DNA of 64,000 nt, from contig NC_092375.1 in the NCBI RefSeq assembly GCF_030028105.1, positions 166,965,415-167,029,414 of the forward strand. Reading direction: 5' to 3'. A program made the position numbers and the translations under genes. The stretch's first letter is position 1. Each line of letters starts with the position of its first letter. Under the pieces are notes generated by a model. That model made no database searches. It had not been told where the DNA came from and saw only the letters and a program-made list of their open reading frames with translations. Source of the DNA: Mobula birostris. Taxonomy: Eukaryota. This document shows positions 26,105 to 27,370 of this stretch, one piece after another.

Positions 26105-27370
26105 AGAATCTATATTATGTTATAAACTATTTTATTTTGTGACTCGTTATGTCTAGGCCAACCACGACAGAACCACCGCCACCGTAAAACTAAGGCCAAG
26201 TGCGTTGTAGACTTTTTCCCCTTTGTACAATCCAAATACACGGTGGCTTCCCCTGAATTATAAGCTATGGTAGGTCAGAATATTTCTTTTAGATCTGATC
26301 GATATCCGTAGTTTGGCAATTCCAAGAATGATATGGTAAGATTTCAGAAACGAATGGTGCAAATTACAAGGACAGCATTTTCGGTCTGTTGTCTTTCTTC
26401 GGATTTAGCGGTGCAACAGTTAGAGACACATCGAATGGATTCCTGTTGGCCACAAATGCAGGGAAACCGCGAAAGCAATAAATATAAAACTTTAAAACAG
26501 CGTTTGCCTTTTCCTGTTTGATTAATAGTCGAATTATAAATGTTTGGTTGTGATCCGGAACGGCACAACTAATAAAGGTAATGAAACGATGTCAAAACGA
26601 TGACTGCATTCATCTGAGTCTGAAGAATTTGGCAAAGATCCGCCCATTGTCTCAGTGATACGTAACGCACGTGGGTTTCAGCTATCTGCTGCTTGGGTGC
26701 TTTTTTTTAGGGGTTAAATTAGGGTGCTACCAATTGAATTAATTAAATACATCCCTAGTTTATTTGGCCACTGCACCATCACACACACGAGCGCGCGCGC
26801 GCGTGATTTTAGTTTGGAACAGAGTTTGATTTATAGGACGTGTAAGAAATATATTTACAGTGTTTATACGATTGTCTTGTAGTGTGGGCAAATCAGGCTG
26901 TCAGTGCTCCTCTGCCTTAGAAGTACTGCGGGTACTTAAAATAATAGAGTTAAAATACTGTAAAATAACTCATGTCTGGAGGCAAGAAGTAATAGACGGT
27001 CGGGAGCTGGGCCCACCGTCCATTGTCTGAAACTGCACAGATCTCCGAATTATTGGAAGGATTACGGTTTCCCAGGAGTACCAGCGGCGGCCCGGATTGA
27101 AGGTGTTCGAAACGTAACAATGACAGTAAAGAGACGAGCAATTTATAACTTGAGATGAATTAAGTTTAACGGGAAGAAAAAGTATTTTAACGGATATTTT
27201 AGATTATATGTCATAGCATAACATTCGGTTTCATTTATCGGCGGAGAATGTTGATTCGTGAGTTTTTATACATATAATTATGGGCTAAGATAGTAATTGC
27301 TATAATCCAACCGTCTAGCTCTGGTAAATATGGCCTTGCAGCCGCCGCCTGACAGTCGATGGAAGAAATT
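26105..27370 (-). pseudogene. Putative decayed HoxD6 relic (promoter, exon 1, homeobox remnants)
   Basis: Collinear remnants in the Hox6 slot: PVKLNSSQ...LYCHCY (27173-27114) resembling HoxB6 PVTLASGQ...LYSSGY; a QIYPWMQRMNS-like stretch at 26766-26735; homeobox fragments at 26307-26113. Stops and frameshifts throughout. Confidence 0.6.

Follow-up and report, generated by a model that had tools for sequence, protein, structure and literature searches.

In the 64,000-nt stretch of DNA analysed here (the window), which carries the HoxD cluster of a ray with its genes on the minus strand, positions 26727–26960 (minus strand) probably hold a neutrally decayed fragment of HoxD6 exon 1, read from the sequence as a borderline signal. 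The likely remnant covers ~230 bases of the 3' half of the exon, follows a near-gapless diagonal over profile positions ~200–430 and ends its match at the YPWM/donor position. The original prediction for this locus was a 'complete two-exon ghost gene', of which the faint 3' half of exon 1 survives scrutiny, while the promoter, the 5' half and the homeobox score at chance. No jawed vertebrate is known to have HoxD6, and no living HoxD6 orthologue is known, leaving comparison possible with paralogs only. The existence of HoxD6 has so far followed from the duplication model alone; a real remnant would show that HoxD once contained this gene in place and that point mutations eroded it, and would make its loss datable. 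Views on Hox function would be unaffected.

Cluster setting and sequences compared

Six-frame translation of the window gave minus-strand homeoboxes of groups 11, 10, 9, 8, 5 and 4 and no group 6 homeobox in the HoxD cluster within the window, where no intact group 6 or group 7 gene was found. HoxD5 is known solely from cartilaginous fishes according to the accessible text of PMC5054437, and the gene set 8-5-4 without 7 and 6 marks a cartilaginous-fish HoxD cluster. The intact HoxD8 (34547–35494, minus strand) and HoxD5 (23911–25018, minus strand), both placed by homeobox translation and blastn, served as upstream and downstream landmarks, and mir-10 (16992–17063) was the sole Rfam match in the window. 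The genome measures 4.0 Gb, and the protein of its HoxC6 gene matches without a difference a record that bears the name Mobula hypostoma, which by that label makes the animal a myliobatiform ray. A 2025 preprint describes HoxA and HoxD gene content as constant among sharks and rays (10.1101/2025.06.08.657570, available part), and PMC5054437, as far as accessible, gives the Hox cluster tree as ((A,B),(C,D)) and lacks group 6 among its elephant shark groups having four members.

The comparators were the HoxA cluster, the HoxB cluster and the HoxC6 and HoxC8 genes, all of the same genome. Intact, divergent HoxC6 and HoxC8 lie ~27 kb apart at 53.21–53.25 Mb on the HoxB-bearing contig, 45 Mb from HoxB, and HoxC6 evolves fast in this ray. 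That myliobatiform rays carry HoxB and HoxC on one chromosome has been described in the preprint cited above, whose red stingray HoxC list, in the part available, comprises C3, C6, C9, C11 and C12, with HoxC8 absent from that list (10.1101/2025.06.08.657570).

The retained frame between HoxD8 and HoxD5

From group 7 to group 5, HoxA and HoxB have in common a Hox7 promoter/exon 1, a conserved element, a Hox6 promoter/exon 1 and a Hox5 promoter. The conserved element is what we take to be FCS, a name that reportedly stems from Kim 2000. HoxD retains three of these components in the HoxA/HoxB order, namely the Hox7 promoter, FCS and the Hox5 promoter. FCS (30707–30924, minus strand), common with the HoxA and HoxB 7–6 intervals at 72% identity, was found by blastn with E values of 1e-24 and 3e-21 and by tile scan at 44–54 bits. 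The Hox7 proximal-promoter paralog (33350–33509, minus strand), retained after the loss of HoxD7, matched A7 with E 1e-12 and B7 with E 9e-6 and scored 48 bits, a value reached by none of 400 shuffles. Because these two elements are both solid, the frame D8 – D7 promoter – FCS – D5 is real, and the proposed order D8 – Hox7-type promoter – FCS – gap – D5 was confirmed by blastn, shuffles and tile scan. The Hox6 promoter/exon 1 block extends over 650 nt at 66% between HoxA and HoxB in the tile scan, and the interval from FCS to Hox5 spans 5.7 kb in HoxD compared with 8.1 kb in HoxA and 9.5 kb in HoxB.

Several other features of the cluster were observed. The Hox7 promoter paralog is the stronger relic of the HoxD8–HoxD5 interval, and a weak homeobox-end likeness lies at 31523–31454 (minus strand; 19–44/400 shuffles). 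Between groups 5 and 4, two more HoxD elements (22381–22491 and 18640–18705, minus strand) have counterparts in both HoxA and HoxB (E 1e-7 to 1e-10). The first of them may be the paralog of the HOXA-AS3/HOXB-AS3 promoter described in the available text of PMC8330917, in which case a HoxD counterpart would be suggested. HoxD4 (14486–15779, minus strand) aligns in a single piece across its intron to HoxA4 (66%) and HoxB4 (61%).

Pairwise and protein searches

Searches with single sequences gave no HoxD6. With word size 7, blastn of the window against HoxA, HoxB, HoxC6 and HoxC8 found no Hox6-gene match across 26100–27370, and HOXD70 Smith–Waterman alignment, in 33 segment tests, placed 0/9 Hox6 segments above shuffles (10–67/100). 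The noise of the latter method is considerable, as B8 exon 1 and the C8 promoter reached 0/100 shuffles in unrelated places. In the tile scan, none of the tiles lying on A6 or B6 exceeded the 95th percentile among 87 and 86 tiles, respectively, and tiles over true elements scored 22–76 bits; tiles with >20 masked bases were left out, hence those of the B6 promoter, which was tested separately. The collinear pairwise diagonal over the Hox6 promoter and exon 1 was thus absent by blastn, Smith–Waterman and tiles against the ray's own HoxA6, HoxB6 and HoxC6, a negative outcome of the very test that the original prediction had set for itself. Exon-1 protein HMMs run on six frames left the candidate region outside the top 12 for all four profiles, and back-translated Hox6 profiles had their scores reached by 52–292/400 shuffles.

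Among single-paralog profiles, HoxC6 exon 1 gave 4.0 bits (6/400 shuffles), and those of HoxA6 and HoxB6 were not significant, yet both peak at 26726. Across the single-paralog tests, 3/44 reached 0/60 shuffles. A HoxC6-only alignment, SNTFNPGRRWYS...SSRPS against NSFDPVRHFS...PSRPS, has by-eye appeal and was rejected because its diagonal conflicts with that of the combined profile; as the two matches lie on different diagonals, at least one of them is due to chance.

A Hox6 profile signal over the 3' half of exon 1

Only profiles that combine Hox6 paralogs give the exon-1 signal. Using a profile pair-HMM that sums all local alignments over a search range of 25300–30600, an A6+B6+C6 exon-1 DNA profile scored 5.6 bits with its end at 26722 (7/7490 shuffles over 25300–30600), and 8.4 bits when local composition was corrected for (2/9838 shuffles). 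Exon-1 profile scores ranged over 5.6–8.5 bits, with shuffle p values of 0.0003–0.001. The signal is specific to group 6, the exon-1 profiles of groups 4, 5 and 7 giving −1.6 to 0.4 bits, or 1.3–2.3 bits in another setting. A codon model supplied with 18 orthologous Hox6 proteins reached 8.5 bits at best over 84 settings, compared with 5.2 bits from own DNA only and 4.5 bits from proteins only; its peak fell at 26722 in 82/84 settings, and its best attachment point was the HoxC stem, as the cluster tree ((A,B),(C,D)) given in the available text of PMC5054437 predicts. Conditional on a match in 26600–27600, the posterior alignment probability is 0.76–0.99 per block. The implied start lies near 27157–27161 and the implied exon length is ~430 nt, against 430 nt in A6 and 439 nt in B6. 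The donor falls at 0.70 of the FCS-to-Hox5 distance (0.70 in HoxA, 0.61 in HoxB) on the expected minus strand. The place originally chosen is the best-scoring one for the Hox6 exon-1 profile in the interval and stands at the expected relative position.

The signal consists of two partly independent pieces, a 33-nt YPWM stretch and an anchored extension upstream of it. The YPWM/MNS-equivalent stretch (26735–26767, minus strand) reads PNKLGMYLINS against PIYPWMQRMNS, and the resemblance first seen by eye holds at 22/33 nt to HoxA6, ungapped. It is the best place in 25300–30600 for A6, B6 and C6 (22, 19 and 19 of 33); the A6 match arose by chance in 4/500 shuffles and the B6 match in 179/500, and 22/33 was reached in 2/267 real control windows. 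Tested with group 6 profiles and without the YPWM anchor itself, the upstream extension was equalled by 10/695 to 42/707 real controls, compared with 162–443 of ~700 real windows for anchored extensions of groups 4, 5 and 7, and the A-only and C-only extensions were null (80/723 and 299/703). The frame is disabled: an ATG is missing where the exon should start, stop codons interrupt it, and the W codon is GGG. An intact or expressed HoxD6 is rejected because there is no homeobox and there are stops in frame.

Promoter block, 5' half, donor and homeobox

The letters on which the larger gene model was built are present, including the block at 27368–27306, the frame LPVKLNSSQVINCSSLYCHCY...NPGRRWY, a CG/TG microsatellite and the YPWM-like stretch. 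The GC-rich block proposed as promoter (27306–27368, minus strand) is 54% GC, in the top 4.5% of the interval, and homology was not detected in it: its supposed likeness to the promoters of A6, B6 or the C6 core is at chance (216–800/1000 shuffles for 6 queries x 3 settings, within 27100–27600), its best match in 270 kb of other clusters reached 1.5 bits on the opposite strand of HoxA, far from the 22–76 bits of true-element tiles, and a search of the 1 kb upstream of A6, B6 and C6 found none of the proposed promoter motifs in exact form. The expected 5' half of exon 1, placed by extension of the diagonal at 26961–27161 (minus strand), has an aligned probability of 0.02–0.46, and the first 200 nt of the exon-1 profile alone had their score reached by 196/300 shuffles. 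The proposed alignment of LPVKLN with FPVTL, although in the same frame, is ~45 nt off the best diagonal and falls in that half, which carries no signal. The frame LPVKLNSSQVINCSSLYCHCY...NPGRRWY sits in a 77-codon stop-free frame (27203–26970, minus strand) that overlaps the proposed exon and lacks an ATG at its start; for this longer frame a database search found no similar protein.

In the donor region (26726–26730, minus strand), the in-register dinucleotide at 26727 is GC. The GT donor claimed at 26730 comes one codon early: 25 nt separate it from the codon equivalent to W, whereas the spacing is 28 nt in each of A6, B6 and C6. The by-eye homeobox likeness at 26100–26300 (minus strand) does not rise above chance, and the claimed homeobox remnant was null in searches of 26000–26420 and 25300–26700 (86–627 of 500–1000 shuffles).

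Controls from real DNA

Real DNA has a heavier score tail than shuffles. As controls, ~370 kb of DNA from Hox regions was divided into 5.3-kb windows and scored in four orientations after masking of Hox exons and simple repeats. By the mean of 12 settings with a local background, 1/263 other windows scored above the candidate; with an order-2 background the candidate dropped to 4.9 bits, with 5/263 windows above it and 3 more tied within 0.1 bit, and another tiling under that background put 4/268 windows above it and 2 tied. A further tiling gave no control at 7.3 bits, but there the window edge cut the candidate and its reversed twin. Without composition correction the candidate ranked 7th of 232. 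From these counts the exon-1 p value is therefore ~0.008–0.03, uncorrected for the three segments tested, several settings also having been tried. Neither half of the exon stands by itself: exon 1 without its last 55 nt gave 1.2 bits (60/300 shuffles), and the last 55 nt alone were matched by 8/300 shuffles. The alignment has no codon-position pattern (21/46, 23/47, 17/46).

The same locus reversed without complementation scored higher than the candidate (8.6, 11.7 and 10.7 bits vs 8.5, 8.6 and 7.3), with 115/239 identical columns vs 62/146. The reversed copy also uses the anchor at 26722–26785, whose core is alike in both directions. That reversed 26350–26785 beats the candidate on the Hox6 profile is a caution against calling fossils by eye in AT-rich intergenic DNA of Hox clusters. 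Other real windows at 6–8 bits were those at 17739 and 54769. The former, at ~17650–18100 (minus strand, end 17739) between HoxD5 and mir-10, matches the Hox6 exon-1 profile at 6–8 bits; it fell to 2.7 bits under the order-2 background and was taken as chance. A GA-rich simple repeat at 27998–28225, in the FCS-to-D5 interval, inflates unmasked alignment scores.

Expected decay and detection power

Four-fold sites of paralogous homeoboxes differ at 64% (K2P 1.47, ~0.73 substitutions per lineage), a value from 157 sites and near saturation. At 0.75, 1.0 and 1.25 substitutions per site, simulated exon-1 fossils, which rest on an assumed substitution and indel model, had median scores of 17, 2.8 and 1.6 bits, and 17%, 21% and 7% of them, respectively, differed from the observed score by no more than 2 bits, vs ~1% of controls. 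Under the local background these fractions correspond to a likelihood ratio of about 10 or higher, and under order-2 to a lower one. Scores as low as the observed one came from a surviving homeobox in 2–5% of simulations at 0.8 substitutions per site and in 20–40% at 1.0, and from a surviving promoter in 23–65% (52–65% at 1.0). HoxD7 exon 1, anchored on its kept promoter, was equalled by 22/638 to 34/614 real controls and 33–68/500 shuffles (p 0.03–0.14), and a group 6 control profile was nearly as good at that site. As HoxD7 exon 1 is barely detectable despite an obvious promoter, coding remnants in this interval lie at the edge of detection, a status that fits a faint true signal and none alike.

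Fossil fragment, chance or whole gene

The weight given to each reading is a judgement built on the shuffle, control and simulation counts. That the match is ordinary intergenic DNA whose descent from HoxD6, if any, can no longer be recognised, with AT-rich sequence about a mirror-symmetric core mimicking YPWM codons in both directions plus a random extension, is a serious possibility, though we hold it to be the less probable account. It is favoured by the reversed control that outscores the candidate from the shared anchor, by the comparable scores at 17739 and 54769, by the null promoter, 5' half and homeobox, and by the marginal result for exon 1 of HoxD7, a case in which the retained promoter tells where the exon starts. 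Against chance, the candidate's score was reached by as few as one of the 263 windows under the local background and by 5–8 under order-2, and the match has the strand and the relative position that were predicted, is confined to group 6 profiles and gains in score when orthologues are added. On balance we lean towards the exon-1 fragment. A recognisable whole gene, with its promoter at 27368–27306, exon 1 running to 26731 and a homeobox at ~26100–26300, appears improbable. Its order and spacing are plausible, AAATGA at 27236 has 15/20 matches by eye to the A6 start, real promoters and homeoboxes would often be missed at 1.0 substitution per site, and high-divergence whole-gene models of A6, B6 and C6 (d 1.2, gap 0.02) were matched by 0–1/60 shuffles, with 26194 as the end of the B6 model. 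However, repeats had been left unmasked for these models, those of A7 and A5 performed equally well (0–2/60), the local promoter and homeobox searches were null, and the exon alignment and donor first proposed do not keep register with the best diagonal.

If the fragment is genuine, HoxD6 would have become dispensable after the second genome duplication and then been lost, gathering ~0.7–1 substitutions per site by neutral decay. The FCS-to-Hox5 interval would have contracted while the exon-1 piece was spared large indels, and the HoxD6 promoter and homeobox would have been deleted or have decayed past detection. The fragment would be functionless today, most likely a passive fossil. Selection likely maintains the retained Hox7 promoter and FCS as regulatory elements of the cluster, a constraint that the Hox6 promoter would not have had.

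Significance and comparison with known systems

The literature searched, short of the main shark Hox papers, contained no description of a HoxD6 remnant, and a metagenome scan for orthologues with HoxD5 exon 1 gave 56 pattern matches, 0 of them confirmed. Were the remnant real, aligning such remnants across sharks and chimaeras might yield full gene skeletons, date their losses relative to the second genome duplication and let group 6 sequence show HoxD grouping with HoxC, a prospect we consider unlikely. Host-gene fossils of such age are rare: for human, the available text of PMC9004415 gives just two strong candidates, each of them strongly conserved and interpreted as exapted.

FCS and the Hox7-type promoter belong with the conserved noncoding sequences that Hox clusters have in common as paralogs (Matsunami 2010, as summarised in PMC3595034), from which the proposed Hox6 promoter block differs in having no paralogous similarity. 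The host-gene protein fossils of Frith 2022, older than the jawed-vertebrate ancestor, are of the same claimed age class as the HoxD6 trace, and reversed sequence was likewise used there as a false-positive control (PMC9004415). Unlike the candidates given in the available text of that study, the HoxD6 trace has no sign of conservation and would fall below a genome-wide threshold. It would resemble the accepted chondrichthyan unitary Hox pseudogenes in having been left in place in its cluster after the genome duplications, and differs from those accepted and annotated examples in being just part of an exon, at the limit of detection and without a detectable homeobox. As portrayed in the accessible text of their sources, psi-HoxD12 of the caecilian Ichthyophis bannanicus (PMC4470032), seen by global alignment to orthologues, and psi-hoxa2b of medaka (PMC5831782) are likewise remnants standing where synteny places the lost Hox gene, both from losses far younger than that of HoxD6.
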